Positions 9,001 to 64,000 of a stretch of 64,000 nucleotides of DNA are shown here, one piece after another (position 1 is the stretch's first letter; each line of letters begins with the position of its first letter). The stretch lies in the NCBI GenBank assembly GCA_043732705.1, contig JAYTHE010000003.1, forward strand, positions 10,352-74,351. Direction: 5' to 3'. Origin of the DNA: Candidatus Omnitrophota bacterium. GTDB taxonomy: Bacteria; Omnitrophota; Omnitrophia; Omnitrophales; Aquincolibacteriaceae. A model generated the notes under the pieces. It was not told the DNA's origin and did not search any database. It saw only the letters and a program-made list of their open reading frames with translations. Both the position numbers and the translations under genes were made by a program.

Positions 9001-12000
9001 CTTGCGATTTGCAAACATCGCGTTGCCGCCAATGCGCGTAAACGAAAAATCTTGTATAAGATCAGAAGGCACACCTGTTTTTATTTCAATTTCGCCATTG
9101 TGCGGGTTAAGTGAAATAAAATAGCGGGTCTCCAAACTTCGAGGACGGCCTTCTTTTTCGACCTTAAAAAGGTCGAGCATCTCTTCAATCATTCCGGCAT
9201 CGTTGAGACTGCTGCTTATTTTTTCCCAAATCGTATAAAGAGCATTAGCGGCATTTTCATAACTGTGAGTTTCAATCTTAATTTCAAGCAGCCCTTGATC
9301 GGGCAAACGGGTGACTGCAACGCCCGGAATCTTCTCAATGGCCTGAGGAATAATTGTGGCCCAATCAATTCTCCGAGACACATCTTTCTCCGGCTGATAA
9401 GCCATGCTAACTTTTAAATGGTCTGCATCTTCTCTTTCAATAAAGAAAATGCCTTCGCCGCCTGCACCGCCATTGGGTTTAAATACAAGCGGGAGCTTTC
9501 GATTTCCACTCACAATCTCTCGCGCAAGACTTTTAAAATTTAAAAGATTTTCACCAGGAATGAGCTGCCGTTTTAAAACTTTAAATACGTCGCTTTCTCT
9601 TTTCGCAAGCTGTTGTGGAGCCTGTATGCCCGCAAAGAACTTAACGCCCTCAATCGGCGCACCTTTCATCATTTCTCGCACTCCCAACTTCGTAAACAAA
9701 ACATTAAAAAGATTTTGCAAAGAAATTGGATTTTGCCGCATTTCGGAGCGAGCAACTTTAGACTCGAGGGAATTGAACTCTCCAACACTCTCGAGTCTCC
9801 GGTCTTCGGCTTCCGGGCTTTCGATTTTGCGCGATTCCTGTCTGCCGGCAGGCATGGCAAAACGAAGAGGGGCCAATCCAGTTTGAAATACCGCAAGCAT
9901 CAATTGGAAAAGCGAATTAGGCGCGCCTTGCCCGGATGCAGCTAATCTTCTATCCACAAAAAATTTGCCGGCCCTGAGCAAACCCAATATACCCGTTAAA
10001 ACACCCAATGTGGTTATCCAGGGAAAAGCCGCGAAAACTGCAGCAAGTGCGCTCGCAACTCCTGCCACACCAATAACAACGAAAGCAAGAGCGGTCGGAA
10101 TACTTATCGAACGGTTCTCTGATCGATGATTGCCCGGCTCTTTCAAATTTGCAGCGACACCTATCGAGCGCAATTCATCACGCCCCTCATCATTTAACTT
10201 TCCACCTTTTGAAAGAAAGTCTTTCAAGCTCATCACGACGGGTTTTGATCCGGGCACTCTCTGAAAGATTCGTTCGGCCGATTTAATATTTTTTAAACTT
10301 TGCGGCTTTTGCAAGCGAATCACAATTTGATTAACTTGTACCAACTGAGGCAATCCATTTTTTACCTCCGTTCCATCCGATCGTCGTCGGGCTCTTCTCG
10401 CCTCAATATAACTATCCCAATTTTTTAAAGTTTTTACGTTTTTAAAGTTTTTAAGCATTGATTTCAGGCGCAATTCTGACTTTGTTCTGTCGTCTAAGTG
10501 AAATTCCAACATAATTTCCGGGTTGACTCCTTCGGGCGTACCTGCTGGAACCTCAAAGCGTTTTAAAAGTGCTGCAAGTGTGGGAAACCCCTGCTTTTTC
10601 AAGAATGCCGAGAGTTTCAACTGTCTTTCTTTCGAACCCGGCTCAAAATCAAATACAAGTGGTTCCGGCCATTTCAGTTTTTCCGCGGAACTTACCTTCT
10701 CAATGCTCTCGCCCTGCTTCCGCATTTCGGAGCGGGCCATTTCAGGCCCGAGACCCAAGGCCCGAGACCCGAGGGTTTCAAGTCTTGCATCACCGAACGC
10801 CGTCCCGGCGGGAGGGGTTAGATCTGCATGGGCCTCAAAAAGCTTTGAAAGGTTATGTGCCAAAGCAAAGGTGTCTAGGAAATTCTCGAACCCGGGGTTT
10901 TCGTAATCCTTTTCTAGATAGAGCGCCTTATCTTTCGTCAGATCAACTTGTTTACGTAATGCTGTCAAATCCGCCAGCAATTTTTCCTGGCCCGTTTCAA
11001 ACGGCAAACCGTGAGAAAAATTTTCTCGGGCTTTCTGATTGTATTTCAGCGTTGCTTCGAAAGAATAAAATAAATATTTCATTATGACCGGCACAACATA
11101 CCCATCAACAAAGTGTCCTTCATGCTGAAACCAATCAAATTCATTCAAAATGAGCATCAAGGTAAGCTGTTCATGCTCATCCGCTGAAAAAACTTGAAGC
11201 GCCTCAAAAAGTGGCACCATCGTTTTTTTCAGATAGGATTGCTTGAGGGCTTCAAGCACAACGTCGCCTCCCTCCTGTGCGCCTAAAAAAATTTCCAATG
11301 CCGCGTAATAATCCATATATTTTGAGCTGTGAACATAGTCCGTCCCCATAATTTCTTTTGTAAAGAATTCCGTCATAGCCTCATTGATGGTTGAATTGTA
11401 ATAATCAAAGGAATGATGCAGCGCCTCGTGAAGCAAGACCGACCTTACCTTTTTGGCATCGCGCGTTAACATGACCTCTTCCCTGATACGAATTTCTCCG
11501 TTTCGTATATCGTAGTCTCCATTAATGTCATCTAAGCTTCTCCACACACCTATTTGGGAAATATCAATTTTGTTCGCCGCACCCTTAAAGTAACTTTTTA
11601 ATTTTTGATTGACCCATCGCACGTGAACATCCAACACTGCGGCATAAGCAGCAGTAACATTTTCGGGGGGCTGTTTGGCTTCAACTGCCGGTTCATTTTT
11701 TGAAGACGCTACATCAGCTAACAAAAGTCCCGCTGACAACGCCTCTGCATACAAATGCTTCTGGATCTCGATCCCAGACAAATTTGTCCATTTCTCAGGA
11801 TCTAATCTTGCCGCGGCCACGGCTTCAGCTTCTACCAGAGCCATATAATGCTTAACGCCTGTTATATTGATGCGAAATTCGGAGCGGCCGGTATCCCCAT
11901 CTTCCGCGGATTTCGGTTCTCTGTAAGGGTTTAGTCGAATGATTCTTCTGATAACGTCTGTCTTAAGCTTACTAATTTGTCCCGCGGCTTTCGGGGTTTC

Positions 12001-15000
12001 GGAAACAGTTTCAAGCCGCCGAAGATCTCTTTGAGCTCCCAGAACAAATTCTGATGTAGCAAGTGAAAATTTCCGGTCGAGTTCCTCAAACTGCGCGTAT
12101 GCATCCCGATACTTTCCGGTATTAATCAACTCAATTAAAGCTTGCTCGGCAACCCGCCATTGCTCGCGTCCATAATCAAAAGTATCCGTTTTTAGTTCGC
12201 GGCGTGATTCGGAACGGGCGCGAAGCCCGACTTCTTTCCGCATTTCGGAGCGGCCCTCGGGATGCTGCAATTCGTAACGGCCGATCCCTGCGAGTTGCGC
12301 GGGAGTTGCTTTGGCATAAGCGTCTTTATCATCTTTTTGAATTCGCGAACCATCGCTAAAAACATAAACCCCACTGTCGAGTGACTCCGGCATTCCTAAG
12401 AAAGGCCAATGCCCGTCGGCTAAGGGTCTTGACAGGGCTTCCACGGCTATAGTGAAATTAACATCAGGATCAATTGCTTCTATGCTTGGCCATGCCCTTA
12501 AAATTTCTGATATTTCAGCTCGGTGCGCGTAAATGGCGGCGGCACGATCCACATCATTTTCAAACTTAGAATTTTTCAATAATTCAGATAAAAGCCCGCC
12601 TTTTACCTCCCGGTGAATTTTATTAATATCCGGGTCAGCGCCAAAGCCAGGCAAGGCTTTTAACTGTCTCTCATACATCGAAATAAAAGTTCTTAGACTT
12701 TCAAGAAAGTTGTTCGCCTTTTCGTCAGCCCGAGATTCGGAGCGGGCTTTGAACTCCATGCGCCAAACAGGCTGATCACTATCAAAATATTTTTGGCTGT
12801 CGAGAAAATAATGAACCCGAAGCTTTGCGGCTGCATTTCGAAATACCTCGTCGCCAACCCCCTTATCTAACCAGCTTTCGACGCCAAACTTAACATCATA
12901 TTCAGTCGCATCGCGCCATTCAGCTCCATTTTTTTTACCCTCACTTTCATGCGCGAGAATAAAAACACGTGACTCTGTTAATCTTGTAATCAAGTCATCC
13001 GCCGTAATTAATCTTCGCGATTCAGAGCGGACAACGTCTGCGATGAGCGGTTTGCGCGCCGTGGTTGGTGATTTGAGCTGACTACTGATCGCTGGTAACT
13101 GACCGCCGAAATTGCGTGATTCGGAGCGCGGTTTGGTAAAAATCATTCTTCTAATTTTTCCGCCTAAATGACTTTGCGGATCGGGTTCTGAGTTCTGCCA
13201 AATCTTCCAACCCTGCCGTAGAAGAGGGGCTAAATACTGATGATAGATGGGAGCGAATGCCGTGTCGGACTCATGAGTATCGGCAAACTCAATAATGAGT
13301 CGTCCTTCCGGCAGTATTTTGCTTGCCAGATTTCTCCAAAATTCGACTGCTACATCCGCCGATGTCACTTTGGGGCTTATACGCGGCTCATAGTACCAGA
13401 CGTTTTTTAATCGGATTACTTCGTACGGGGACGGATCCCGAACCACATCCAGCAAATCTCTTTCTTCGATTTCAACATTTTTCATCTCGCTAATTGCAGC
13501 CGTCTCTTTCAAAAGTCCTGCAATAAAATGATTGCTATCATTAAATACAACTTTTCTATTCGGTGGAAGCGAGTAGATAAAGTCAGACACTACTACTCCC
13601 GAAGCCAAATCTAAGTATCCATTTGTTACCATATTTACTTCCGGTAACACCGGGGGAACCCAAGCTTTATCACTTATAAACGCATTATTCTTTTCCACCA
13701 AGATATTCGCAAGGTACCTGCCCAATAAATCAATAAGGTGATATTCTTTTTCCTCTTTTCGAGAGCTTTTGTTAATAAATTGCTCGACTTCATCGGGGAC
13801 ACGCGATGCTTTGCCAAAAAGAATCGCGCGCGGATCTGTGTTGACTGAAACCCATGCACGACGCCATTGTGTCGGATTCAAGCTTGTTTCCATCATAAAG
13901 AACGCAGCGTTCAGAACCTTTTGATCAAAATTATTTCCAGAAATAATTTTTAAAAAAGGAGTTTGTCCAAAATGAGACCGAATTTCATCCAGCAGTTCTT
14001 GTTTTCTCATTTCCGAGCGGATTTTTGAGTGGACAGATTCCCATCTTTTCGCGTTTGCCTTTTGCTCTTCACTGCCGTAGAAAAATTCTGTGACGGCATC
14101 ATAAACCCACCCGCTTTGTTCAAAGTAAGCGATCGAGGCCTCCTGCGAAAGATACTTACTCCGGAGATCCTCCAGCGTATAACGATTCCAATGCAATTCT
14201 TGCAATTCAAATTGCTCGGCCAATACTGATGCAAAGTCACTTAACTCTCCCACCCGCGTCTCGGCTGAAATTGGAATCATAAGATCAATTCCGAGATACG
14301 TTTCTCTCACTTGAACCCGGCCATAAGACCATGCCGGAGCCGCGCTGTTAAAGTTCATAAGAATTTCTCGATTTTTTTCAGAAAGTGTTTCTTTATTGAA
14401 ACGGATTAAAGCATGCGGCGGCAAATCAGGATCTCTTCCTTGAATATCTTTGCGGTTTGCCGAAGTGTTAGTGGTTTCGATATTTTTTCGAAAAAGAATT
14501 TTGACGGATTCTAAAAGTGGCTCGTCGACCAAAGCATCCCATTCATTTTCGGCATAAACAACTCCGTCCATTGGGCTTTCGTTAGGTTCAATTTCTGCAA
14601 TTTTTTGATCGCGCGATTCGGAGCGGGTAATTTTATCCATATACTCTTTCGCGGCACCTTCGGCTTTTGCCCTGCTCATTCCTTCAATTCCCAAAAGAGC
14701 ATTTTCAATTCCTCCGCGTATTAGCGCTTCATTTGCGCCTTGTGCTTCTTGCGCCGCCCTACTTTCAGAGCGAGTGATAATTTCCACCGTAGGGCTCGGA
14801 GAGCCCGTATCGCGTACATCGTGAAGCGTATCTCGGGAAGAATTAGACGAGATGCCGGATGCGAGGGACGCTTCACTCGCGCTACTGTGCCCTAGCATCA
14901 CTTCGCGATAAAGGTTGGAATTTTCAACCTGTGTCAGGCGCGGTGTGAGAGTGCCGTAGCTGATGTCATGCTCGCGGAATAAAGTTTTGAGGCCGTCGGT

Positions 15001-16791
15001 GTGGAAGCCTCCGGTCATCACAATCGCCTTGTCGGTATGAGCGAGCTCTGCTTCAATTTTTTGAAAGAAAACTTCTTCACGCCGGGTCGCGAAACCGTAG
15101 AAAGAGAAGGCGCTATCAAAAGCAGTTTGAACCTGCTTTTGATAAGGTGTCTGGATTCCCGCCTGCGCGGGAATGACAGAACTTTGTTCTTTGTTCTTTG
15201 TTCCTTGTTCGGAAAGGCTATCAGCCTTTGAGTTATGGTTTTGACTTTTAACCTTTAAGCTTTGACCTGAAAGTGATTTCACTCGTTCAAAAAACTTTTG
15301 TGGTTCGAGTTGATCTTTTTGTGAAATCACTTTCTGCCATTCGTCGCGGCTTAACTCGAGATTTAATAATTTTCTGACTAATTCCGCATCACGAAAAAGG
15401 GCAATCAACTCCGACCCTGTCCACATCGGATGTGCACAACCTTGTACACATCCGATGTGGACAGGGTTGTGTTCGTTTTGATCGAGCAGTTTGTCAAAAA
15501 GCTTTCTGATTTCAGCAAACAGTGAATTTGGCTCGACCTCGTAACGTAAAATTAAATATCCTGCTTGCAGCGCAAAATTCGGATAATCAGAAAATTTCAA
15601 GCCCTTCGGCCCGGCCTCTTCAACCAGCTTCTCAATAAAAAAGCGTGGCAGCGATTCTGTCTTTCCAGAAGAAGCTTTGATGGTATTGAGATTGATGTGC
15701 TGTTCATCGAAGAGTTCGAGTTTTTGAATGAGTTCGTTGCGAACTCCTTTCTTTTTCATCCACTCAATGATTTGTTTTCTTTCAATCTCAGCGGCTTGTT
15801 TGGCTGTTATTTTCTGTTCGTCTAAGTCTGAAGGTTTTGGGCTATGGTTTTGACCTTTAAGCTTTAAGCTTTGGGCTCGCGGCTGCTTCAACTTCTCTTC
15901 CATGCTTTGCAAAACGAGCAGCCGCGTCAGCTGCGGCCATTCGATTTGCGACATAAGGCTATGGAGGTCCAAATCTAAATTTTCTTTCGCGAGCTTTGCA
16001 AGGCTTGAAACAAACGGAATAAATTCGCGATGGCCTTTTTCAAATTTCTTCCACTCGCTCAGAATATTGCGCTTTTGCGGTGGAAGCATTTTCGAAGCAA
16101 GTTTATCGAGCTCACTATCAAGGCCGTTTAAAAAGCGTTTCGTTTCTGTGTCACGGCTATAAACCGCTTTGAGCGCTTCATAATTTTTGCGGTACAAGTC
16201 TGCTTTTTCAATTCCAACGCCTTTGATTTCGTCTGTTGGGGACTGTCCCTGCATGGGGACTGTCCCCTGTGGTACTAAGGAACCATTGGGGTCAGTCCCG
16301 CACGCGGCTTGGGACAGACCCCGTTCCGAGCCCTCCAGCAAAAACCAATCGGCACCCGTGATCTGTCCGCGTTTGGCAAGTTCATCCCAAAGTTTTTTAT
16401 TTGTCTCCGCGTCAGGGAAAAGTTTTAAATATTCCGGATTGAGGTTCTCCGAGGCGCCTTCGACAAAAATGGTCTTGAATCCGTAGTTTTTATTCAGATA
16501 AACCATCAAGTCGCGAATCTTTTGCTGAGCTTCATAATTCGTATGCGCGTTTTGAATATGCAAAATCATTTTAGGATTGGGACGCGCAGGAGCTTCGTAG
16601 AAGTCTTCTACGCTCGCAAGTTCAGCCGGGATATCAATTTGCATCAGCTTGGGTGTTTCCGCTCGCGGAGACAAATCGATACGCATGCCCGCGTCAGCGA
16701 AGCATGTATTTATAGTGAAGAAAAAGACCAGGGCCGCGGCCGTAGTCTTCTTCAACACACTATTTATGTGATCAAGAGAAGTTTGTGTCAT
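3019..16791 (-). CDS. Giant secreted or membrane-anchored multidomain protein (4590 aa), giant protein 1.
   Basis: A continuous 13.8 kb ORF. The N-terminus MTQTSLDHINSVLKKTTAAALVFFFTINTCFADA looks like a signal peptide. The N-terminal module is shared with the other two giants (HIQNAH..., GGFHTDG at 14995..15015). It contains an HEALHH (HExxH) motif, an ATP-grasp-like stretch, the class-I SAM-methyltransferase motif IYDLGSGDGRVV, a CheY-like receiver-like segment RIMVVDD...LIVTDKDMP, several hydrophobic transmembrane segments and about 19 R-S-E-x-R motifs. Confidence 0.85.
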   Translation of the reverse strand: MTQTSLDHINSVLKKTTAAALVFFFTINTCFADAGMRIDLSPRAETPKLMQIDIPAELASVEDFYEAPARPNPKMILHIQNAHTNYEAQQKIRDLMVYLNKNYGFKTIFVEGASENLNPEYLKLFPDAETNKKLWDELAKRGQITGADWFLLEGSERGLSQAACGTDPNGSLVPQGTVPMQGQSPTDEIKGVGIEKADLYRKNYEALKAVYSRDTETKRFLNGLDSELDKLASKMLPPQKRNILSEWKKFEKGHREFIPFVSSLAKLAKENLDLDLHSLMSQIEWPQLTRLLVLQSMEEKLKQPRAQSLKLKGQNHSPKPSDLDEQKITAKQAAEIERKQIIEWMKKKGVRNELIQKLELFDEQHINLNTIKASSGKTESLPRFFIEKLVEEAGPKGLKFSDYPNFALQAGYLILRYEVEPNSLFAEIRKLFDKLLDQNEHNPVHIGCVQGCAHPMWTGSELIALFRDAELVRKLLNLELSRDEWQKVISQKDQLEPQKFFERVKSLSGQSLKVKSQNHNSKADSLSEQGTKNKEQSSVIPAQAGIQTPYQKQVQTAFDSAFSFYGFATRREEVFFQKIEAELAHTDKAIVMTGGFHTDGLKTLFREHDISYGTLTPRLTQVENSNLYREVMLGHSSASEASLASGISSNSSRDTLHDVRDTGSPSPTVEIITRSESRAAQEAQGANEALIRGGIENALLGIEGMSRAKAEGAAKEYMDKITRSESRDQKIAEIEPNESPMDGVVYAENEWDALVDEPLLESVKILFRKNIETTNTSANRKDIQGRDPDLPPHALIRFNKETLSEKNREILMNFNSAAPAWSYGRVQVRETYLGIDLMIPISAETRVGELSDFASVLAEQFELQELHWNRYTLEDLRSKYLSQEASIAYFEQSGWVYDAVTEFFYGSEEQKANAKRWESVHSKIRSEMRKQELLDEIRSHFGQTPFLKIISGNNFDQKVLNAAFFMMETSLNPTQWRRAWVSVNTDPRAILFGKASRVPDEVEQFINKSSRKEEKEYHLIDLLGRYLANILVEKNNAFISDKAWVPPVLPEVNMVTNGYLDLASGVVVSDFIYSLPPNRKVVFNDSNHFIAGLLKETAAISEMKNVEIEERDLLDVVRDPSPYEVIRLKNVWYYEPRISPKVTSADVAVEFWRNLASKILPEGRLIIEFADTHESDTAFAPIYHQYLAPLLRQGWKIWQNSEPDPQSHLGGKIRRMIFTKPRSESRNFGGQLPAISSQLKSPTTARKPLIADVVRSESRRLITADDLITRLTESRVFILAHESEGKKNGAEWRDATEYDVKFGVESWLDKGVGDEVFRNAAAKLRVHYFLDSQKYFDSDQPVWRMEFKARSESRADEKANNFLESLRTFISMYERQLKALPGFGADPDINKIHREVKGGLLSELLKNSKFENDVDRAAAIYAHRAEISEILRAWPSIEAIDPDVNFTIAVEALSRPLADGHWPFLGMPESLDSGVYVFSDGSRIQKDDKDAYAKATPAQLAGIGRYELQHPEGRSEMRKEVGLRARSESRRELKTDTFDYGREQWRVAEQALIELINTGKYRDAYAQFEELDRKFSLATSEFVLGAQRDLRRLETVSETPKAAGQISKLKTDVIRRIIRLNPYREPKSAEDGDTGRSEFRINITGVKHYMALVEAEAVAAARLDPEKWTNLSGIEIQKHLYAEALSAGLLLADVASSKNEPAVEAKQPPENVTAAYAAVLDVHVRWVNQKLKSYFKGAANKIDISQIGVWRSLDDINGDYDIRNGEIRIREEVMLTRDAKKVRSVLLHEALHHSFDYYNSTINEAMTEFFTKEIMGTDYVHSSKYMDYYAALEIFLGAQEGGDVVLEALKQSYLKKTMVPLFEALQVFSADEHEQLTLMLILNEFDWFQHEGHFVDGYVVPVIMKYLFYSFEATLKYNQKARENFSHGLPFETGQEKLLADLTALRKQVDLTKDKALYLEKDYENPGFENFLDTFALAHNLSKLFEAHADLTPPAGTAFGDARLETLGSRALGLGPEMARSEMRKQGESIEKVSSAEKLKWPEPLVFDFEPGSKERQLKLSAFLKKQGFPTLAALLKRFEVPAGTPEGVNPEIMLEFHLDDRTKSELRLKSMLKNFKNVKTLKNWDSYIEARRARRRSDGTEVKNGLPQLVQVNQIVIRLQKPQSLKNIKSAERIFQRVPGSKPVVMSLKDFLSKGGKLNDEGRDELRSIGVAANLKEPGNHRSENRSISIPTALAFVVIGVAGVASALAAVFAAFPWITTLGVLTGILGLLRAGKFFVDRRLAASGQGAPNSLFQLMLAVFQTGLAPLRFAMPAGRQESRKIESPEAEDRRLESVGEFNSLESKVARSEMRQNPISLQNLFNVLFTKLGVREMMKGAPIEGVKFFAGIQAPQQLAKRESDVFKVLKRQLIPGENLLNFKSLAREIVSGNRKLPLVFKPNGGAGGEGIFFIEREDADHLKVSMAYQPEKDVSRRIDWATIIPQAIEKIPGVAVTRLPDQGLLEIKIETHSYENAANALYTIWEKISSSLNDAGMIEEMLDLFKVEKEGRPRSLETRYFISLNPHNGEIEIKTGVPSDLIQDFSFTRIGGNAMFANRKGNEVRGAEKTYDVYAPFGMQAEEVNIFKQKVNSDIKLLTDYILLRLKKIVGEENIHQLPQDARLRVTLDVFWMKPDAVTLGFPRLAPNEIQIESNLALSDYLNAKPLKFNPVPLIPSVKRSEMRTLADLLSQRLSAGAELEFIDLDTGAGAFPPEFEKYLRDRGYKVKGWKATEPYPDEATPINENVRKRIIKANAQFESEFLELKKHPVEIVTINNIETAPGELANRALELLKNPGGILLVTVESNDVIDSRQNGIMAAIQNAGFDVSIQDLPADYPEYSSFVKASKLIIAVPKTARSLPRRQAGEMRTIVIDGPSAPLTSEFYVDGDIWDKLAVDQDRIMYILKQGGNFSNGRAHTVGDWDDHRTVILPLIRPVEIEGRKYESAKIIGVLISADKDIPPLDFRANSQSEVLLAPRDGVIHWIDIPPHPAGSSEAIYAESRFHGAKLAQKNKLLVAPPVGFGKFTNKNFSYRDKSGTHTIEVGYFIELLEGQDETSLYSMVAEKAAETKDSIELTDWLSLRLGEYAGSLRDLNAFAKHGQPTNNNFVYENGRPRLKDYEGTTALSELSPDDRLAYLIKNFESLIFSIMIFQKMLENPYDSPKFGSVESGRRLELKEMLGKKFPEIFSSYFRNADVGNFSGHYFSWAGLPQLYMDLNQTILKEGNDLKSSRHEIVELFRREFDAELAAPTQPAVRRSEIRNRRGFLGQIVTAGTIALAGPLEAIAKLTTPELKMAPANMLDPAKLKKIKSPNVLKILNEAPEVVPKQIVRLTKDQEAQQKETNRFSPAEARKILNEILDPIFNEMNIAEEEKENKRESLIRLGQIIVANESGYWLKNQRIKNFIEQFIAVGWGQIETGKEGSRVGQDHLFTWFYYNNFKGSDIRSTVLNHLHSEIAEGLGLKADEIKELVDTLKAQAPNNETKAMDIIGPWLAKKILNNEKLDLTFMMTLVFRQIWKNSKDDASFLANIPDLVGDEKDPLNAAKIEARALNFYANHYRIKIIRAPKNETPEAATKREKAQAKIDADNSKKTRVAVAMLRRSNFSKTAESKLFVAAEVFPEPQAAEPVLAKTLFEEFSRLPLILAGIAAVVVALSGREKRSIQRGKSAGIAFILSMSASVFILMGLAVTAIWQSDQPIDLTPLYFNAIISMSLLAGFLGFKKLSRFQSKSRSEMRDVKEQKKAELGKRIDAFASVLNEQINSKLPDGWGALEDQLNELAKLAKEINPEPINYGQAVVQEEAYFARTPLRTVAAILNELQLSAEDTIYDLGSGDGRVVWLSGLLTQAGAAKGVERDDALFELSKKIIEALKKIAEEKRIHLKEMAIWKGDFQDIDEATTQRPNPFKDGTVFYVFRPNMDRSFGVMMRQLRATGAERVIRVVAVGVFEDELGENFTVEKKIGQNIIILRSTSAAESSKVDDGQQNRSENRIATAEDRAKSRGNPKVAVRSEIRSDALDNLKSFLIQVVNNHYDVARHLEKNSPVYQVLMMIVKSRLAHLVFSIEMTTEEKIVGFKTLGNEFEALSDKIMQLGVQSGAGQIYEEFLIELGEHIAKISALEPDKEMVQKPDEAKSPRNRIMVVDDKQQNGEVVADILRMIVGDDHVTLIVGQDAAEQADKHLQKRFQEYSLIVTDKDMPPGGGENVGEGEEGWALIEKWMKMDEKLSFILNTGDLTDEIKAKAGALGIIGAFGKGMKMFEFLENAVQVAKEKANRSELRSQISGIEKIQLGFNPDALKRSEARGIFKLIPVLLAWGIFNFGSKEANADTLKARQAIQISTIDEYAQIVALRSENGNVIDAIRRSDIASEEHANTALILDKLPTEEEFLRDVVPVLEAKPNHKILILAAANQNWKMSESSKKYSGRIKFEILGSADKAQRVLKDAAARFFGGAEYGLVGSEDKLNIFPADFFDKSNVKGVSTFDRADLDSVAPDKRALVLNLQATKFSEFSGSRQLEGFEENKPIGTIKRYKMTRAGFLGMAGKILQILQTLQIVSSAA
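3950..4295 (-). other. CheY-like receiver domain-like segment inside giant protein 1.
   Basis: SPRNRIMVVDDKQQNGEVVADILRMIV...SLIVTDKDMPPGGG resembles a response-regulator receiver, with an acidic pair and a phospho-acceptor Asp before M-P. Confidence 0.45.
5100..5230 (-). other. Class-I SAM-dependent methyltransferase motif region inside giant protein 1.
   Basis: EDTIYDLGSGDGRVV is encoded at 5181..5219 (motif I, D/ExGxGxG). Downstream are GVERD and KGDFQD. Confidence 0.55.
11406..11439 (-). other. HExxH zinc-metallopeptidase-like motif (VLLHEALHHSFD) inside giant protein 1.
   Basis: The reverse complement of 11406..11439 translates as V L L H E A L H H S F D. The motif alone is weak evidence for a peptidase. 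Confidence 0.4.
15154..15178. repeat. Family-A palindromic repeat inserted in-frame in giant gene 1.
   Basis: ggattcccgcctgcgcgggaatgac translates in-frame as …VIPAQAGIQ…. Confidence 0.75.
15230..15269. repeat. Family-C repeat half-copy, in-frame in giant gene 1.
   Basis: gagttatggttttgacttttaacctttaagctttgacctg translates as …SQSLKVKSQNHNSKA… A second copy, gggctatggttttgacctttaagctttaagctttgggct at 15838..15877, translates as …AQSLKLKGQNHSPKP…. Confidence 0.6.
15414..15471. repeat. Family-B palindromic element (core TGTACACATCGGATGTGTACA / CACATCGGATGTG arms), in-frame in giant gene 1.
   Basis: Perfect inverted arms ccctgtccacatcggatgtg … cacatccgatgtggacaggg. It translates as …NPVHIGCVQGCAHPMWTG…. 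Confidence 0.7.
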
Positions 16792-34803: not shown

Positions 34804-34846
34804 CACCCTAACCTTGTACACATCGGATGTGTACAAGGTTAGGGTG
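34804..34846. repeat. Family-B palindromic element, intergenic between the helicase and giant gene 3.
   Basis: The perfect 39-bp palindrome ccctaaccttgtacacatcggatgtgtacaaggttaggg. Confidence 0.75.
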
Positions 34847-46900: not shown

Positions 46901-48601
46901 GAATGATCGTTCACGAGCAATCGCACCTTGATAAAACTGAATGGCATTGTCGTAAGTTTTTTCTAAATCAGAAAAAGAACCGCTACGCACACTCCCGGTG
47001 ATAGGCTGAGGCTCAATACCGGAAGTGTTCTGAAAGACCGCTTCTAACTGCTGCACAACCTCAGATGGTTTGAAGCTGTTTTCTGTCGTTGGTCTTCGGT
47101 CGTCAGTCGTTAGTCGTTTTTCTATTTTTTTAAATTCCGAGCGGCTTAGTTCCAAATGAAGCAATTTATGAAGCAGAATATATTTTTCAAGCACCTTGAT
47201 AAGTTTTATACCTTTATCTATTTCCAAATGGTCATTCCCGCGAGGGCGGGAATCTAGCCCTAAATGTTTCTGGATTCCCGCCTTCGCGGGAATGACAGAG
47301 GCCGCTTCTTTCACAATCTGCGCGTGCATTTTCTCGGCTTCTTTTTGCAATTCAACGGCATCCATTTCTCCACTCAAAATAATTTGAGCAATCCATGCTT
47401 TCAGTTCCGGCCACTTATCCATCGAAAAATTGTTTGGCAAATAAACCGCAAGCCGCTCAAAAACTTCGCGGGCGGCAGAAAAATCAGCGGGAGCTTCGGG
47501 GTCAATTCCGCGGGTTTTAGCTTTTTCGATTAGATTGTCGATTTCTATGAGAATCGCCTTAAGCGACGAAGCACCACGCTGCGCCCCCTCGGGGGATGCC
47601 ACGGGCAACCCCCGAGGAGTCTGCGCTTCAAGTCGTCGGTCTCTAGTCTCTGGTCTCTGGTCCAGACTTTTTAAAGTTTCTAAAAAGTCTAGTTTTTGTT
47701 TTTCTATTTTTGAAAAGTCGGCCGCACGCGCCAAATTTTTAAGATGGTAATACCGCACAAGCATCGGAAATTCGATTTGTTCGTGAATATCCGCAAGATC
47801 ACGCTTCCACACAGAATCAGCATATTGTTGAATCGCATTGAACCATTCCGCTGATTCCACCGCGTCAAGGCGGCTCCTAGCATAAGCTTCCAGATATTTT
47901 TTAAGTGAAGGACTGAGAAAATGAATCGCGGCATCTTGCCAGCGCGAAAAGAAAGATCTTAAAAAAGCCCGGCTTTCCGTAAGTGCGGAATCAACTTTGC
48001 GGTATTGCTCGACATTGTCCCAGTAAGCCGCAGCGTCTTCGATTCCATACCCTTTTACATTTTTTGATTTCATTAGAAATGTTTCCGCGCCGGTTAAGTC
48101 GCCATCGCGCATCCACGCATTACGTTCCGTCGCAGTCAGTTTTTTACCCCCGGGGAAAAAATGATGCAGGTCAGGATCGAGCTCTCCCGTCCCGCCTTCT
48201 AAATATATTTCATGAATCCCACCTTGAGATTGCATTTCGCTAAGCATGTTCTGAATATTCTGCTGAGCATCCAAAACAGCGTGCGCATCTTGAATGTGAA
48301 CCAGAGTACCGTGTGAATTTTTCGGAACAACTTTCTCGGTCACCGTACCAAACCGGGCGCTTGGTTTCCATGTTTCAAAAACTGAGACTTCCGGCGATGA
48401 CTCCGCAAAGGAAAGCACCGCTGCTTGCGCTGTGTCCGGAGTTAACACCTGCGTGAGCACATATAGAGGTATCAGCGCGATGGCCCCAAATTTACGGTAT
48501 TTGCGAGGAAGATTAAACATTTTATAGAAGATAACCGACTTACTTTTTTTTTCAAGTGCTACACAAGCAGGAAAGTGAACATTTTTTAAATAGAAAACCA
48601 C
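34922..48601 (-). CDS. Giant secreted multidomain protein (4559 aa, or 4532 aa from the internal Met at 48520), giant protein 3.
   Basis: A continuous 13.7 kb ORF. The internal Met gives MFNLPRKYRKFGAIALIPLYVLTQVLTPDTAQA, a better signal peptide than the first Met. It shares the IQDAH / GGFHSDG N-terminal module. It carries a PPP-family metallophosphatase domain, a PEP-utilizers swivel domain plus a PPDK_N ATP-grasp domain, and about 12 R-S-E-x-R motifs. The C-terminal tail is conserved with giant protein 1. Confidence 0.85.
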   Translation of the reverse strand: MVFYLKNVHFPACVALEKKSKSVIFYKMFNLPRKYRKFGAIALIPLYVLTQVLTPDTAQAAVLSFAESSPEVSVFETWKPSARFGTVTEKVVPKNSHGTLVHIQDAHAVLDAQQNIQNMLSEMQSQGGIHEIYLEGGTGELDPDLHHFFPGGKKLTATERNAWMRDGDLTGAETFLMKSKNVKGYGIEDAAAYWDNVEQYRKVDSALTESRAFLRSFFSRWQDAAIHFLSPSLKKYLEAYARSRLDAVESAEWFNAIQQYADSVWKRDLADIHEQIEFPMLVRYYHLKNLARAADFSKIEKQKLDFLETLKSLDQRPETRDRRLEAQTPRGLPVASPEGAQRGASSLKAILIEIDNLIEKAKTRGIDPEAPADFSAAREVFERLAVYLPNNFSMDKWPELKAWIAQIILSGEMDAVELQKEAEKMHAQIVKEAASVIPAKAGIQKHLGLDSRPRGNDHLEIDKGIKLIKVLEKYILLHKLLHLELSRSEFKKIEKRLTTDDRRPTTENSFKPSEVVQQLEAVFQNTSGIEPQPITGSVRSGSFSDLEKTYDNAIQFYQGAIARERSFTKNLNNYFSESFATSHGPRQRRIEVIVTGGFHSDGMREFAQKNQYAYVEVMPRISKITEDDRAHYRRALLGEGSVPSLPAGRLDATRGEQSRTKQRGLTSMVSNDSHVTAALATSAGIFKGRSELRMRFNNAQLAPLNQVRSEMRDLKEAGQPQAPGFGASLIARMPRVELLNKKLASVSGFISAIFTWLVLTAAIIFYFPRQFWKAKRDGVWPYHSWNSYFRYLKARQAGSLEKTELNKMPALRFQVSDSVRAVRLRDIIAMALSRGVSLKDLKLLTENDPVRVVAGRKKKRSDLGSVRVSNGRFFEIGGTLDLDKFILAGDDVYVLLPSVGGTTFAVKAEFTSGEVYLPRTAIHYAEDLPSSARSETRGIAKNNVISREITLLQKAHFVLPRALHAKLRLELGARNETISSQTEVRLVSLDDPTKFFSINIDQKKNLFYFRYKPKDLPAIVSKMNIYNPDGKMKQNTPLYFQPAFRAFYDDLFGIPLAAGIGRHQKIKEHLDALSRVNRKLIRKISDSKRDGYVQFLGRLYLPGYYMKHPQDFEMIVDRATQPRWVMLRYKKNPELYFILEYFDTYLKTEKEGEKIRIKITDEAGKPLRKGYQLRLAEASGEFRAFDEQVDKKVTANYGEDETVEVNHDDAGFKFRSASPLKVEYYDGHRWSRSRQANARLKAIPTLIVDSSIQNGAAIAIQFDNPKKPKRITVQGITDQKGQPVWFNLKGYYNLSVVLRLAEEGLLPGLQISDALKQVVAAYEYRESKVQPKLRNYEFDVRSRRLIPKGFINPEEARSFRAEVRNEKAIPSRSENRITTVSTKNLNPGQELELLEDVKKRLENEHVTLTGAGDHFIIEATKRSELRVDDAIAEIQSWNREHGADSLKEDTTDPFQTRREIQARKIYHQYGLEQVSIEERAKYVRVVFQDIAGPVVQFIDGWIDALSPEERASHEPLSPAFFQKISSKMADLEHRYTILHNQFIRTAGDLIFDLDPTEKNILELRGLADEITKELDGLEKDGKPGRGNIPVVAAMQDLHGGTRRALALLAFVYGLPADSYARIHILNDLKEQLDEKGLSLEKFLGRIIGFSDAPDRGPDPVGSIELIDEMVHTSIARFLLGNHDEYRALSALGIHKLFPDIDLYSEEHTGHHVGFWLREAFHHADWGDVELDQLNQRRFNKIVKDINQRLRTFGAAESFEFIDLAKVRQDLKPELKRIKAHNSKLRQKWQGAMAAEKEAALLAKRAPNPIPKPAYLPNINIFEETSKMIRGKMDAYQRQIVTLRETYADLPGFENFTPLTLGNYDTDREIVYSAINQLRNFRLFYLDIYNNLHLHNMIPIDEQGQFNVKYRGQTGLAALELMTRDIRTYFEGLSDADIEKYITGSKSERMAFRRALWNVLGPAFEEITSWYSDKLLHAKVDMVKKFADHGQIGWLMGHTAGSFVDRSPNGFIIMGHNEQSKFPNKQMSPFVLFPSFGSGILNIDGEMSPGYEDLGIILTYNLRDEKGYVTGLKLWGFPDKKDPHPDVIQDLTLVGLEKLRQKAIAQIAALGGELSSGTVPTEAIEEKQKQKIAWEKLEASLREQIPLFEKLTDGKTFLRWTLFKTTKELERQLTARLAKDVSSDVKRQHFEQMLRNTTVEMSKLSNPLFETTAPTPRSEARSAPQNPKASMRSESRDFPKVLANFSADISLVIHSAASEKLRLVLGSEHVHEDNEIEVKDILPANYPIQFKGEFQKLTHNADRLDQFRKYHNEVLIKLASVSRWKQAEADEFMRNFDMLVKIFLSFEGMTSADLVGVRERWTDLEAQYQLVRSGRGGSITVFFDRMRGIWTAAESEKGLSKVDTLNKFINWMHSYVEHSVLKINHDGKWSFLDLDHVATGEPSLATKILPEAILKNLKSPGVTQSNDLSILLKGTNFWMRKTLGVHRMQAYANLVPLEMGGNSEFVYFEGGAKVGNHLRMKLIARVFKKLGFRVVAPAEDEWSFEKMVLRASLDHKQNVSDLSVLMRNTKIAMDMLLRIVNTDQALRDLAESYSKDELDQIIEAWSQKIILTAGKVTPIDIPMNYTKSSAGEDDTAAVPQKIVVSKGKFWESPEPYDDAQNVEFRENGKKIHSALQSTLAALGLEAMPEYDSAVFGQIFIETFFNSVVSRTVNAGRIIQGAHGYEINPHYIASSPIRNFVETWQDLSKRENLIQMGQMVSNTTFRLKHIGLIGQAMVYSAEVSLITGTIEVVLVRSADKKSLLAGGIWSQGQLLTPDAASILLSRSNIEIHVSKSQPGDYARLADNLEMEFRTPAEGSIYTGEAIQGFGFLPGTATGPIRFSEGAQEGDILYVSTLNEGNINLLRMANGVISEVGNKLDHFNTRAKHFGKPRVQVSHAVLKPSSGGGAALEISGKIVDRAENFQGYPLIQAVTDGENIRIEEGDLVTINGTTGMIHWLGKDPVVLEAYHTISSIEKAATASELEKQIQKLIEIISRAVQAKNILLVKFILRQIIFDGTLLSPAHKRGSLAQLFQSGEGKYFEQLKNLLSPADDELREGIKAYLKTLYRHAKGQILRDFSRAREAVGVVARLDQIYYEIRRLRTEVAAFQAVQSFLGEIVLGEPGIDLNSKQESVFGEIQKTIRHLKAQLEERVSEIIEQNKKHPFNQETYFLLARILERVAAFEKLGIRLEKINQKQVAKLKKDAVQIQKQRRARRDALRKKRLIALSDTGIDYYEITGNKGANLGWLNHFVDWYNGQKKNKSMRLSVALGYAVTAHAFNEFLDQTVMGQGPKAQTLRAYVKSVLADRLLSIKEKSQKIEEAFLAQELPQEMSEEISRVVSGGLWAVRSSTKLEDTPRSSAAGLFATNLGATTPALVEKYLRQTWASLYGEPSLSYLWDADPADFFDLLKDEGAVIQQLISADTSGVISSVEISSDDRGFMVINAGYGLGQAIVDADQDADAIVVDKVTKIPQIFPGEKRKKTIVDGKGATMNVETTPEERNTVSLSRAQIAELTDITLALEEWFGYVVQVEFAIKDSVIYLLQIRPIPGFKVPKKERPALAKWAGMIASQEPFKKQRSEARSNQKLEVAESHVGRMSRENFNGESFSHENFNWKSVLGLAAAGLTGLGLALSGAWIPALFISAAAVYFGASFIPPSQGSLTRSGYPVFDSIRGAIDHLKIGFRAASNSPSRSEIRTPAESVKYLYGQWEDLERQNVIIQAKVAYPGVLTNEEGFNQIWKRTSGYGKGVEFSLEHSATDLRQEFQRLSQKGDITPDDLGGLLGKVESHKRRLDVLSAHLMVTDVMTAERRNQSYVIFEAAQAYTNFWKKVITELQQHLKMPADKLYARQGIQAAGFVFELMLGGRMDLAGENERLIEELEAELERVTNDNLPKNTLKILQDLINRRWEFTAFAENPEEMRARHAYLDELKTFAAQTYIMVLSSEQKLSTAQASLAPLLNIMIKIHDYAFAASNDWPTDWNHDRQGLKESLGYVLEQMQKKYRSESRDDTGSLSQRAEIRVQTMLEGSKRIFDESDHWIKTEDLNGNLVDDLIWEAGKIVRVRTRMADGSFIVLDSNGDGVVHSAEIEEGPVFIDWQPGINLNDIQHIPFAEITNEPSPKGSAPSVFRIMALLLMDQKKTSVAYWGNEGAVQAPTDRLFNSLAETMLPQAEVSIDDLSHFVNMQRRGFAQTSGLADYMADELGVLRMKFQIYPRDVKWVPHPFERIFFQTQKGLASIDVRGGKAQRLYYDDEVYLAPQFLFGTLDFHAQRHTIREEDGVFKAYVEDEHVLTVDKTGKVLFERSEMRLEKKVEVKATARSEHRAIEPVVVPKNKIIALKIMAARLFADGILSVKDAVYYLKHHEEFLAVLPLLVSTEQKKQNLAHLTGMLGVDIQVKDGIVLSPALVREGFLAAAKEVFEGVPFALIASGSEKIKAVQWIQTNKLTERIFVAENIREARVWLTRHGVTRIQGMALAGEEALPDFDELIRFTTGQLQKFYDRAGILGEVQHLARIFSVFASAA
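38000..38800 (-). other. PPDK_N / PEP-synthase-type ATP-grasp (PEP/pyruvate-binding) domain inside giant protein 3.
   Basis: ITGNKGANLGWL matches GGKGANL. WAVRSSTKLEDTPRSSAAGLF matches the [20 protein letters not shown] signature. SGVISSVEI...VINAGYGLGQAIVDAD matches SGV.FT.DP...NA.WGLGE.VVsG. Confidence 0.65.
39700..39900 (-). other. PEP-utilizing-enzyme mobile (swivel phospho-His) domain-like segment inside giant protein 3.
   Basis: GNKLDHFNTRAKHFGKPRVQVSH aligns with the GGRTSHAAIVARELGIPAVVG signature, with the His conserved. It is followed by DGENIRIEEGDLVTINGTTGMI, which resembles kdGdlvtvDGstGeV. Confidence 0.5.
43400..43900 (-). other. PPP-family (ApaH/PrpA-like) metallophosphatase domain inside giant protein 3.
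   Basis: Motifs appear in the canonical order: AAMQDLHGG (DxHG), FSDAPDRGPDPVGSIE (GDxxDRGpd) and LLGNHDEYR (GNH[DE]). GNHDE is encoded at about 43546..43560. Confidence 0.6.
47231..47296. repeat. Two family-A palindromic repeats in opposite orientation, in-frame in giant gene 3.
   Basis: gtcattcccgcgagggcgggaatc (47231..47254) and ggattcccgccttcgcgggaatgac (47272..47296). They translate as …VIPAKAGIQKHLGLDSRPRGNDH…. Confidence 0.75.
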
Positions 48602-52427: not shown

Positions 52428-52452
52428 GGATCCCCGCCTACGCGGGGATGAC
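52428..52452. repeat. Family-A palindromic repeat, intergenic between the ABC ATPase and the SBP-permease.
   Basis: ggatccccgcctacgcggggatgac. Confidence 0.75.
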
Positions 52453-53983: not shown

Positions 53984-54090
53984 AGGTTAAAAGCTAAATC
54001 TTAAAACCATAGGCCAAAGCCCAAAATTATCCGGGCAGCTGAAGGTTTTGGGTTGTGGTTTTGACCTTTGAGTTTTAAGCTTTTACCTAT
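53983..54090. repeat. Family-C MITE-like element with imperfect ~40-bp terminal inverted repeats (GGTTTTGGG[CT]T[AG]TGGTTTTGACCTTTAAGCTTTAAGCTTT).
   Basis: Left arm aaaagctaaatcttaaaaccataggccaaagcccaaaa and right arm ttttgggttgtggttttgacctttgagttttaagcttttacc are near reverse complements of each other. Related half-copies sit in-frame in giant gene 1 at 15230..15269 and 15838..15877, each encoding SLKLKGQNHSPKP-like peptides. Confidence 0.6.
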
Positions 54091-57495: not shown

Positions 57496-58380
57496 TTACC
57501 ATCTTCCGCTTGCTCCTCCACCGCCAAAACTTCCACCACCACCCGAAAATCCCCCGCCACCAGAATAACCGCCCCCACCTCCGCCACGACTCGACCAGCT
57601 CGATCCTCCACGGCTCGTAAGTAATGCTCGAAGAATCAGCCACAATATCGCGAACGTAAAAAACCATTCCCAAAAGCTATACGCACCTGTATATCCTCGA
57701 TGCCCATTCCAATAAGTGCTATATCTAACTAAATCAATAATAAGAATAACTCCGATAATCAAGAGAATCATTTTCAGAAGAGCTCCCCCCCCATTGTTTT
57801 GAGCCGCGGCATTGGCCTGATATTCGCCTTTAGTCGCAGACAAAATAGCTCTCACACCACTTATAATTCCATTTTCAAATTCTCCCGCGCGGAAATAAGG
57901 CGTTACTTCGTTACGAATAATTTGCGATGACAACGCATCCGTTAAAACCCCTTCAAGCCCATAGCCCGCTTCAATGCGCATTTGGTGATCATCTTTAAAA
58001 ATTAAAAAGAGCACGCCATTATTGCGATCTTTTTGACCGATTTTCCATTGCTGCGCGATACGTATCGAAATATCTTCGAGCGACCCGCCCTCCATGCTTG
58101 GAAAAGTGGCCACGACGATTTGATTTGAAGTTTGGCGCTCAAACTCACGCAAGTCGGCGTCTAATTGCAATTTGGCCTGAGGTGAAAGTAAAGCTGCGCG
58201 GTCAGAGACGTAGCCGTCGGGCTTTTCGGGGATTTGGAAATCGGCCCAGGCGGAACAAGAAAGGCTTATAAAAAATGCAGCTGCAATAAATGATAAAAAA
58301 ATCCATTTATTGTTCCGCCTGTCCCGGACTTGATCCGGGATCTTTTTAGATTCCCGCCTACGCGGGAATGATAAAAACAT
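57496..58380 (-). CDS. TPM-domain membrane protein with a Gly-rich C-terminal tail. The annotated N-terminus is repeat-derived, so the true start probably lies downstream.
   Basis: YVSDRAALLSPQAKLQLDADLREFERQTSNQIVVATFPSMEGG…GVLFLIFKDDHQMRIEAGYGLEG matches a TPM domain. It has a transmembrane helix and a (GGGG[YF]S)n tail. The first 10 codons (MFLSFPRRRESK) translate a family-A palindromic repeat. Confidence 0.7.
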   Translation of the reverse strand: MFLSFPRRRESKKIPDQVRDRRNNKWIFLSFIAAAFFISLSCSAWADFQIPEKPDGYVSDRAALLSPQAKLQLDADLREFERQTSNQIVVATFPSMEGGSLEDISIRIAQQWKIGQKDRNNGVLFLIFKDDHQMRIEAGYGLEGVLTDALSSQIIRNEVTPYFRAGEFENGIISGVRAILSATKGEYQANAAAQNNGGGALLKMILLIIGVILIIDLVRYSTYWNGHRGYTGAYSFWEWFFTFAILWLILRALLTSRGGSSWSSRGGGGGGYSGGGGFSGGGGSFGGGGASGRW

Positions 58381-58410
58381 AAACTAGATTCCCGCCTGCG
58401 CGGGAATGAC
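58348..58410. repeat. Two tandem family-A palindromic repeats between the TPM gene and lemA.
   Basis: agattcccgcctacgcgggaatgat (58348..58372) and agattcccgcctgcgcgggaatgac (58386..58410). Confidence 0.8.
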
Positions 58411-62720: not shown

Positions 62721-64000
62721 CTACTTAATCTTTGCGAGCTGTTCTTGGCAAGAAATAAAAAGTTTTCCGGCATCTTCGAGTTTAGCTTTTTCGCCGTCAA
62801 TGACTTGCTTCGGCGCGCGTGCTACAAAGTTTTCATTCGAAAGTTTTTTTGACATCGTTTCAATCCACGGCTTGAGTTCAGCGATTTTCTTTTCGAGTTT
62901 CTTTTTTTCTTCTGCTGGGTCAACCAAGCCCGTAGTTGAAACTAGCACGTCAAAATCCGCGTAAGGCACAACGGAGTAACCATCTTGATTCGAAAAAGAC
63001 GCCACCACTTCTAATTTTTCAAGCTTGGCTAAGGAGCAAATTTGGGAACTTAGCCCGCTTAAGATCGCTGCCTTGCCTTTTTCTTTGGCATGAACCACCG
63101 CAGCCATTTTTTGGGAAGGCGGAGCCCCGATACGCACGCGGATATCTCTTAGTCCCGCAACCGATCTCTGCAAAATATCCATTTCGCTTTCAGCTTTTTC
63201 ATCTGTAAAAACGCAAACCCTGTACACATCGGATGTGTCACCCTGCACACATCCGATGTGTACAGGGTTTGCAGCCCAACCAACATGCATGATGGTTTCC
63301 GGCCATTGATCTTTATCCTTAGCGAGATCGCGAAAACGCTGCCAAATCTCTTCGGTTGTAAAAGGCATAAATGGATGTAAAAGTCTCAAAATTTTTTCAA
63401 GCACATAAAATAAAACCGCTTGCGTGTCTTTCTTGGTCGCTTCATTTTGCAGATAGGGTTTCGCAAGTTCGATAAACCAATCGCAGAAATCATTCCATAC
63501 AAAATGATAAAGCTCGGTGGAGGCCTGGCTTAAGCCAAATTGCTCCAATTCTTTTTCGATCAATTTTATTTTCTTTTCTAAGGTAGAAAGAATCCAACGA
63601 TGCGCTACGGGCAGCTTTTTAATATCCAAATGAAGTTCCGATGACCCGTCTGTAAAACCTTCCAACCCCATTAAAACGAAACGCGATGCATTCCAAAGTT
63701 TGTTCGTGAAATTACGACCAACTTCAAATTTTTCGCGGGAAAGATAAACATCCTGTGCCGAAAGCATGACAAGCGACCAGCGCAAAGCGTCCGCGCCCAT
63801 CTCTTCGATGATTTCCAGCGGATCAATGGAATTCCCGAGCGACTTCGACATTTTACGGCCCTGATCATCGCGCACGGTACCATGTAGATAAATACGGTTA
63901 AACGGTACTTCTCCCAAAAATTCACAGCCCGCCATAATCATGCGCGCGACCCAGAAAAAAATAATCTCCGGTGCCGTGATTAAATCTGATCCGGGATAAA
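62721..64000 (-). CDS. valS: Valyl-tRNA synthetase, C-terminal part. The N-terminus runs off the window end.
   Basis: The KMSKS loop (RKMSKSLGNSIDP) and the C-terminal coiled-coil tail are present. The frame stays open upstream of the annotated Met and reads …EIIFFWVARMIMAG, the class-I anticodon-binding motif. An in-frame palindromic element insertion is visible at 63215..63270. Confidence 0.9.
   Translation of the reverse strand, partial: YPGSDLITAPEIIFFWVARMIMAGCEFLGEVPFNRIYLHGTVRDDQGRKMSKSLGNSIDPLEIIEEMGADALRWSLVMLSAQDVYLSREKFEVGRNFTNKLWNASRFVLMGLEGFTDGSSELHLDIKKLPVAHRWILSTLEKKIKLIEKELEQFGLSQASTELYHFVWNDFCDWFIELAKPYLQNEATKKDTQAVLFYVLEKILRLLHPFMPFTTEEIWQRFRDLAKDKDQWPETIMHVGWAANPVHIGCVQGDTSDVYRVCVFTDEKAESEMDILQRSVAGLRDIRVRIGAPPSQKMAAVVHAKEKGKAAILSGLSSQICSLAKLEKLEVVASFSNQDGYSVVPYADFDVLVSTTGLVDPAEEKKKLEKKIAELKPWIETMSKKLSNENFVARAPKQVIDGEKAKLEDAGKLFISCQEQLAKIK
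63215..63270. repeat. Family-B palindromic element inserted in-frame within valS.
   Basis: aaaccctgtacacatcggatgtg … cacatccgatgtgtacagggttt, perfect 23-bp arms. It translates as …ANPVHIGCVQGDTSDVYRVCVFT… inside the ValRS C-terminal region. Confidence 0.75.

Follow-up and report, generated by a model that had tools for sequence, protein, structure and literature searches.

Short palindromic repeats inserted in-frame in valS and a giant gene of a Candidatus Omnitrophota bacterium

The window analyzed here is a stretch of 64,000 nucleotides (nt) of contig JAYTHE010000003.1 (assembly GCA_043732705.1), from a Candidatus Omnitrophota bacterium. It contains three copies of a short palindromic DNA element, here referred to as family B, two of which lie in-frame within unrelated genes: valS, encoding the valyl-tRNA synthetase (ValRS), and a giant gene (giant gene 1). 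The third copy is intergenic. Both genic copies are insertions relative to homologous proteins, and the ValRS insertion falls in a loop that is predicted to be disordered. Family B is probably a lineage-specific family of small, non-autonomous, dispersed palindromic repeats, tolerated within genes as a translated loop.

Sequence and architecture of the family-B copies

A preliminary description, made from the sequence alone, had placed one palindromic element at all three loci. Each of the copies is present, at slightly corrected coordinates:

63213..63272, minus strand: family-B doublet in valS, 60 nt, with 26-nt arms (63213-63238 and 63247-63272) that are 100% complementary and an 8-nt loop
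15414..15467, minus strand: family-B doublet in giant gene 1, 54 nt, with 26-nt arms (15414-15439 and 15442-15467) that are 96% complementary
34804..34846, no strand assigned: intergenic family-B single palindrome, 43 nt (21+1+21), with arms (34804-34824 and 34826-34846) that are 100% complementary

The arms, originally given as 20-23 bp, are thus longer in the genic copies and 21 nt in the intergenic copy. The copies do have a common core, as proposed, but differ in architecture, the intergenic copy being a single palindrome and the genic copies doublets. The family-B unit consists of a flank ACCYTGT, a 15-nt palindromic core ACACATC(G/C)GATGTGT and a flank ACARGGT. The intergenic copy, which has the giant gene 3 stop codon (34922) on one side and a DEAD-box helicase start codon (34759) on the other, is one such unit palindrome with an added outer layer, CACCCT...AGGGTG. 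On the sense strand, the genic copies contain a full unit followed by a second core and flank (flank-core-flank-core-flank), forming one 26-bp hairpin, with a half-unit period of 23 nt in valS (sense strand GCAAACCCTGTACACATCGGATGTGTGCAGGGTGACACATCCGATGTGTACAGGGTTTGC) and 25 nt in giant gene 1.

The similarity between the loci is high, with 20-22 of 22 nt identical between arms. In the giant gene 1 copy, 25 of the 26 arm positions are paired, and the single mismatch is a G-U pair in the sense RNA. An A-to-C change specific to this copy occurs on both of its arms, indicating that the hairpin symmetry is maintained or copied. The three family-B palindromes are the longest in the window, and the pattern ACACATC(G/C)GATGTG occurs there at these three loci only, with no matches in 100 dinucleotide-preserving shuffles. 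In the approximately 70 kb that could be read (the window and its flanks), this amounts to about one locus per 23 kb, and a profile search (nhmmer) with the half-units recovered neither a further nor a degenerate copy from the window and about 6 kb of Logan-derived flanks. All three copies are predicted to fold stably, with sense-strand RNA folding energies of -51.8 (valS), -50.9 (giant gene 1) and -34.6 kcal/mol (intergenic), z-scores of -9 to -11.5, and corresponding DNA folding energies of -33, -30 and -22 kcal/mol.

Insertion sites in ValRS and giant gene 1

The two genes that carry family-B copies are located as follows:

62721..64000, minus strand: valS, C-terminal 426 codons in the window; the full gene, on a contig of the Logan assembly (L139), encodes 945 amino acids (aa), with the HMGH and KMSKS motifs kept
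3019..16791, minus strand: giant gene 1, 4590 aa, carrying the other genic copy

In an alignment with 19 ValRS homologues (40-67% identity), a conserved Trp is separated from a conserved Asp-Glu by 9 residues in 19/19 sequences, and by 24 residues here. The closest relative for which DNA is available, a metagenome contig with valS-nadC synteny (L146, JGI 3300055294), lacks the element. Over the stretch reaching from the window end to position 63274, two bases short of the element edge, its nucleotide identity to the window is 82.5%. It then reads W-SGDVAGSMS-DE where the window reads W-AANPVHIGCVQGDTSDVYRVCVFT-DE, so that the net difference amounts to 45 nt (15 aa). The valS segment is therefore an insertion relative to its orthologues, as the preliminary description had supposed, with a net gain of about 15 aa instead of the 19 first estimated. 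From this comparison of sequences, the insertion is established as younger than the split from the L146 relative (82% nt identical), and its arms are still perfect; the active spreading proposed in the preliminary description goes beyond this. In L146 itself (positions 1-1487), valS is called as two open reading frames (ORFs) joining at 594, which points to a frameshift or a misassembly upstream of where the insertion lies.

The location of the insertion in the protein was mapped by structure comparison and prediction. Alignment with the Thermus thermophilus ValRS structure 1gax splits at the insert, with query residues 1-234 matching residues 480-707 and query residues 266-410 matching residues 712-847, so that query residues 235-265 face only residues 708-711. 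The segment is also absent from the Pseudomonas aeruginosa ValRS structure. An AlphaFold model of the ValRS portion (mean predicted local distance difference test score, pLDDT, of 82; best structure matches 1gax and 4xkz) drops under a pLDDT of 50 in its interior at residues 245-262 only, the peptide encoded by the element, while adjoining 10-residue blocks average at least 80. In the model, the insert follows the last helices of the anticodon-binding bundle and precedes the first helix of the next alpha/beta domain. The insert is thus predicted to be a disordered surface loop lying after the anticodon-binding helix bundle and before the C-terminal junction and coiled-coil domains, in agreement with the earlier suggestion that the element is tolerated in surface loops.

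The giant gene 1 insertion was analyzed by comparing the N-terminal 900 aa of the protein with 15 Omnitrophota homologues (33-41% identity). The element lies in a loop between two conserved helices, which is empty in 9 of the homologues and contains an unrelated 12-residue insert in the other 6; the net gain here is 14 aa.

Both genic copies lie in-frame on the sense strand, contain no stop codon and are translated in silico as A-NPVHIGCVQGDTSDVYRV-C in valS and as NPVHIGCVQGCAHPMWTGS (aa 442-460) in giant gene 1. The expectation of one identical peptide at the two sites holds for the first 10 residues, NPVHIGCVQG, and fails for the second half, valS continuing with DTSDVYRV and giant gene 1 with CAHPMWTGS, because the half-unit spacing of 23 versus 25 nt puts the second half-unit in another frame. 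Of the six possible reading frames, 5 are open through the valS copy and 6 through the giant gene 1 copy, making the element intrinsically compatible with read-through. As stop codons are almost absent from all of its frames, a copy adding a net multiple of three bases within a permissive loop would leave the host protein functional and could persist. The net insertions of 45 nt (valS) and 42 nt (giant gene 1) are both multiples of three.

Origin of the element and alternative explanations

The architecture and the insertion sites are consistent with a process in which copies were added to unrelated loci by a copy-and-paste mechanism. In the scenario most like that of the repetitive extragenic palindromes (REPs) and their inverted doublets (REPINs), a single-stranded DNA hairpin would be mobilized by a transposase encoded elsewhere in the genome. 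Selection would then act as a filter, such that the surviving insertions net a multiple of three, are stop-free in the frame used and land in a permissive loop. In ValRS, the element would be read through, adding a disordered loop of roughly 15-18 aa, and the element peptide is most likely a neutral passenger and not a functional module.

Several results weigh against this reading. Only three family-B copies were seen in the 70 kb covered. No target-site duplication was found at any of the three sites, which lack flanking direct repeats, and the valS flanks extend the inverted repeat instead. No transposase domain was found by Pfam search of 16 mid-sized window ORFs (the three giant ORFs being left out), or in the gene tables of the 6-kb flanks. 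The net insertions are shorter than the palindromes of 60 and 54 nt, and the sequence comparison suggests either that native codons were lost or that the outermost arm bases are native, the available relatives being too distant to fix the boundary. Searches beyond this genome point in the same direction. A scan of 185,579 reference genomes (GTDB species representatives) for TGTACACATCSGATGTGT gave 18 isolated matches in unrelated taxa, none of them with the element flanks and thus chance matches, and viral contigs contained no match to the core palindrome or the doublet pattern. The concatenated element reading frames, searched without a positive control against 5.8 billion proteins, gave nothing at E<=10, and a profile of the genic peptides matched only two unrelated tandem-repeat proteins among 1.84 billion representative proteins. 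The negatives from these sequence searches are weak, as they never returned the window's own ValRS and giant gene 1 proteins, which the collection does contain, and hence have no positive control.

No convincing family-B copy was found outside this genome, a negative as weak as the searches behind it, and three observations from metagenomes deserve mention. In a metagenome-contig scan with TGTACACATCSGATGTGT, the matches listed were dominated by an unrelated human-gut Lachnospiraceae gene containing the 18-mer. Also among the matches listed was a 2-kb metagenome contig (L034, JGI Ga0163146_10097937) with a 35-nt perfect palindrome at 1307-1341, GGGGTCTTGTACACATCGGATGTGTACAAGACCCC, of which 25 nt are common with the intergenic copy. 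This contig has no long ORF and no Pfam match and is possibly not bacterial, and its resemblance to family B could be kinship or coincidence. The third is a contig from a relative (L141, Logan SRR13076511), approximately 88% nt identical in the helicase gene, which starts with GGCGACAGGGTGAAAATAAAA, at a point 12 nt into the intergenic palindrome's position, and keeps the AGGGTG flank. A related palindrome may be old at this intergenic site, which may be why the contig ends there.

An alternative to a dispersed repeat is that the palindrome is a selected cis-acting site, either recognized in the DNA by a dimeric binding protein or acting as an RNA hairpin in transcription attenuation, RNase III cleavage or ribosome pausing. 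Such a site would account for the perfect or compensated arms, for the very stable sense RNA hairpins of the genic copies (z of about -10 to -11.5), for the G-U pair at the only arm mismatch in giant gene 1, and for the position of the intergenic copy in the 5' region of the helicase gene. In addition, the valS hairpin is followed on the sense strand by GUUUUUAC, so that 63204-63272 (minus strand) resembles a simple intrinsic terminator, about 0.5 kb before the valS stop codon. However, the giant gene 1 and intergenic copies have no U-run and do not match the terminator pattern, and Rfam gave no family above the gathering threshold, with lax E-values yielding only generic microRNA-precursor hairpin matches far below it. 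Furthermore, a regulatory site need not be delivered as a 45-nt insertion in a protein loop, relatives do without the element at the valS site, and there is no obvious functional link among the three host contexts. A selected site is accordingly an improbable explanation of the family, and a parS- or terminator-type explanation covering all copies was rejected. A 26-bp perfect duplex is in principle long enough to be an RNase III substrate. Together with the terminator-like pattern, possible RNase III cleavage means that the valS insert may not be cost-free.

Lower still is the probability that the palindromes originated locally, without a mobile element, through inverted duplication or template switching (‘quasi-palindrome correction’), with their likeness arising from gene conversion or a short seed motif. 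The doublets do resemble a unit with a duplication, at a 23- or 25-nt period, of the core and 3' flank, and the arms within a locus are more alike than the copies at different loci. The lack of target duplications and of a transposase, and the net insertions smaller than the palindromes, are also compatible with a local origin. Template switching explains the symmetry within a locus, but not the arm identity of 20-22/22 nt across three unlinked loci, and the relatives contain no seed palindrome at the valS site.

Two further explanations have very little probability. The first is that the element is bypassed by the ribosome, or otherwise removed from the message. The gap in phage T4 gene 60 and the mitochondrial ‘byp’ elements are hairpin inserts in essential genes that are skipped via matched take-off and landing codons, usually with a stop codon, and the strong 54-60 nt hairpin in each ORF is similar in size to known bypassed gaps. 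Nevertheless, both genic copies keep the frame and are stop-free in the frame used, with net lengths in multiples of three as expected for translated inserts. A stop following a take-off codon is missing, and so is a take-off/landing pair of matching codons, because the flanks are reverse complements and not direct repeats. With an open frame and no bypass signals, translational bypass was rejected.

The second is an assembly or library artefact, such as a chimeric join, a hairpin artefact or an adapter remnant. The 76.5-kb contig is metagenome-assembled, some library protocols can generate palindromes, and the family-B core has 8 nt (TACACATC) in common with the Tn5/Nextera mosaic end. The element sequences contain no Illumina or Nextera adapter and no full mosaic end, and an adapter origin was rejected on these grounds. 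The Logan assembly of SRR23617244 reproduces the valS region including the element with 100% identity over 4744 nt, although the two assemblies probably derive from the same reads. Moreover, the three copies differ in sequence and architecture, and on either side of each genic copy the gene continues collinearly and in-frame, with both halves aligning to homologues. Finally, the idea that the segment is ancestral in ValRS and was lost by other lineages was rejected as having next to no probability, given its absence from all 19 homologues including the closest (67% aa identity), from L146 and from the T. thermophilus and P. aeruginosa structures, and its DNA-level identity to a repeat at two other loci.

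Other repeat families and comparison with known systems

The window contains two further families of short dispersed repeats, families A and C, at the following coordinates, the two family-A copies in giant genes overlapping loci of the first line:

1108-1157, 15155-15174, 47234-47293, 52430-52449 and 58350-58407: family A, ATTCCCGC-N4-GCGGGAAT with GTCA/TGAC-type flanks
47231..47296, minus strand: family-A doublet in giant gene 3, in-frame, VIPAKAGIQKHLGLDSRPRGND (aa 436-457), unrelated in sequence to family B
15144-15180: family-A singlet in giant gene 1, SVIPAQAGIQ
15828-15872 and 15219-15263: family-C copies in giant gene 1, SLKLKGQNHSPK and SLKVKSQNHNSK, respectively

Family A, whose 8 half-units form singlets and inverted doublets at five, mostly intergenic, loci, has the look of a classic REP. 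A contig from a relative (L147) contains a family-A doublet (760-811) in the same lemA-TPM spacer, indicating that this family is older and broader than family B. A third family-C copy (45 nt, 54039-54083) is intergenic, downstream of feoB, and is 91% identical to the copy at 15828-15872. Families A, B and C are alike in having intergenic and in-frame copies in the same genome. Their peptides are absent from 120 ValRS and 37 giant-protein homologues and, of 187 proteins compared, are carried only by those of this genome.

In giant gene 1, four insertions of dispersed repeats relative to homologues (families C, B, C and A) lie within 730 nt (15144-15872), suggesting that such repeats may contribute to the growth and variability of the very long Omnitrophota proteins. 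Giant genes 1 and 3 are paralogues, with about 25% identity, and the family-B copy of the former and the family-A copy of the latter fill the identical variable loop of a conserved N-terminal domain. This occupancy fits a selection filter, or alternatively could result from targeting to pre-existing hairpins. A broader proposal, that the three hairpin-repeat families routinely colonize coding sequence in-frame and home to the same structural loops, is considered rather unlikely. If true, same-loop homing would imply that insertion is targeted to hairpins or pre-existing repeats, while routine colonization would genuinely lengthen linkers and loops, in giant genes and also in enzymes of core translation, and would provide a second, independent case of the ‘protein-coding palindromes’ so far regarded as peculiar to Rickettsia.

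Two side observations concern the giant genes. A Logan contig covering giant gene 1 (L140, SRR23617244_67653) ends at about 15177 by arithmetic, adjoining the family-A palindrome at 15155-15174, as would happen if a multi-copy repeat broke the de Bruijn graph assembly. The sequence CCGCATTTCGGAGCG occurs seven times within giant genes 1 and 3 (5473-5493, 9730-9750, 10714-10734, 12232-12252, 13999-14019, 35564-35584 and 46460-46480), reads CGCTCCGAAATGCGG on the coding strand and encodes RSEMR; it looks like a recurring protein-level motif and not a mobile repeat. Apart from its three giant genes of 3366-4590 codons, the window has the gene content of an ordinary bacterial chromosome (ROK kinase, ppa, pseudouridine synthase, typA, DEAD-box helicase, feoB, uvrB, nadC and valS), and the nearest relatives of its proteins, ValRS and the pyrophosphatase among them, are found in Candidatus Omnitrophota metagenome-assembled genomes.

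The valS insertion is clean and unusual and the same-loop observation intriguing, but the overall case is built on three copies and a presumed mobility. Insertions of this kind let one see, as an experiment of nature, which loops of a protein can accept 15-20 random residues. They also put 26-bp perfect hairpins into mRNAs, and may mislead assembly, gene calling and annotation by homology. No description of such palindromic repeats was found in the publications consulted on Omnitrophota giant genes.

Among known systems, the closest in behaviour are the Rickettsia palindromic elements (RPEs). In the account in PMC10969869, these are elements of about 100-150 bp, in ten families, from intracellular alpha-proteobacterial parasites (Ogata et al. 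2000, 2002, as cited there), found in intergenic regions and in-frame in unrelated genes, including housekeeping genes, where they are read through at fold-compatible positions. That account gives 44 RPE insertions in genes of the single R. conorii genome, and RPEs are not known to have a transposase, terminal inverted repeats or target duplications. Like RPEs, the family-B palindromes are in-frame and stop-free in unrelated genes, with a predicted fold-compatible position between domains in ValRS. In contrast to RPEs, they measure 43, 54 and 60 nt, have a nested palindrome/doublet structure and an Omnitrophota host, and are documented in two genic copies. Membership of family B in the RPEs is very unlikely, the two being set apart by size and host and not by sequence comparison. 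Large-scale in-frame colonization of genes by palindromic repeats is on record essentially for Rickettsia only, and a clean case from a free-living or episymbiotic candidate phylum, in an aminoacyl-tRNA synthetase that is essential, would untie the phenomenon from reductive intracellular genomes.

REPINs, by comparison, consist of two REPs in inverted orientation (PMC3337134). Nearly all REPs and REPINs lie outside genes, and every family is linked with a gene for a REP-associated tyrosine transposase (RAYT) flanked by its own REPs (PMC3337134, PMC3116915). Family B resembles them in comprising a singlet and two inverted doublets that each form one long hairpin, and in lacking target duplications, and the doublet is by this parallel a plausible replicating unit and the singlet a remnant. 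It differs in that two of the three copies are genic and in its compact doublet of 54-60 nt, a typical REPIN being about 100 nt long. No RAYT was seen among the 16 mid-sized window ORFs and the flank genes covered. REPs and REPINs number tens to hundreds of copies per genome, and the roughly 70 kb read here contain three family-B loci.

[quoted passage not shown] MITEs have terminal inverted repeats around an unrelated interior, target-site duplications and a recognizable parent insertion sequence (PMC10969869). Family B is likewise small, non-autonomous and in-frame in host ORFs, but consists entirely of palindrome, with no target duplication or parent element in the window. With the bypass elements it has in common a short hairpin-forming insert inside an essential coding sequence, but its frame is open and it carries no bypass signals. 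By analogy with these systems, the best-supported placement of family B is as a repeat that is REP/REPIN-like in architecture and RPE-like in behaviour, and that is probably neither an RPE, a classical REPIN nor a MITE.

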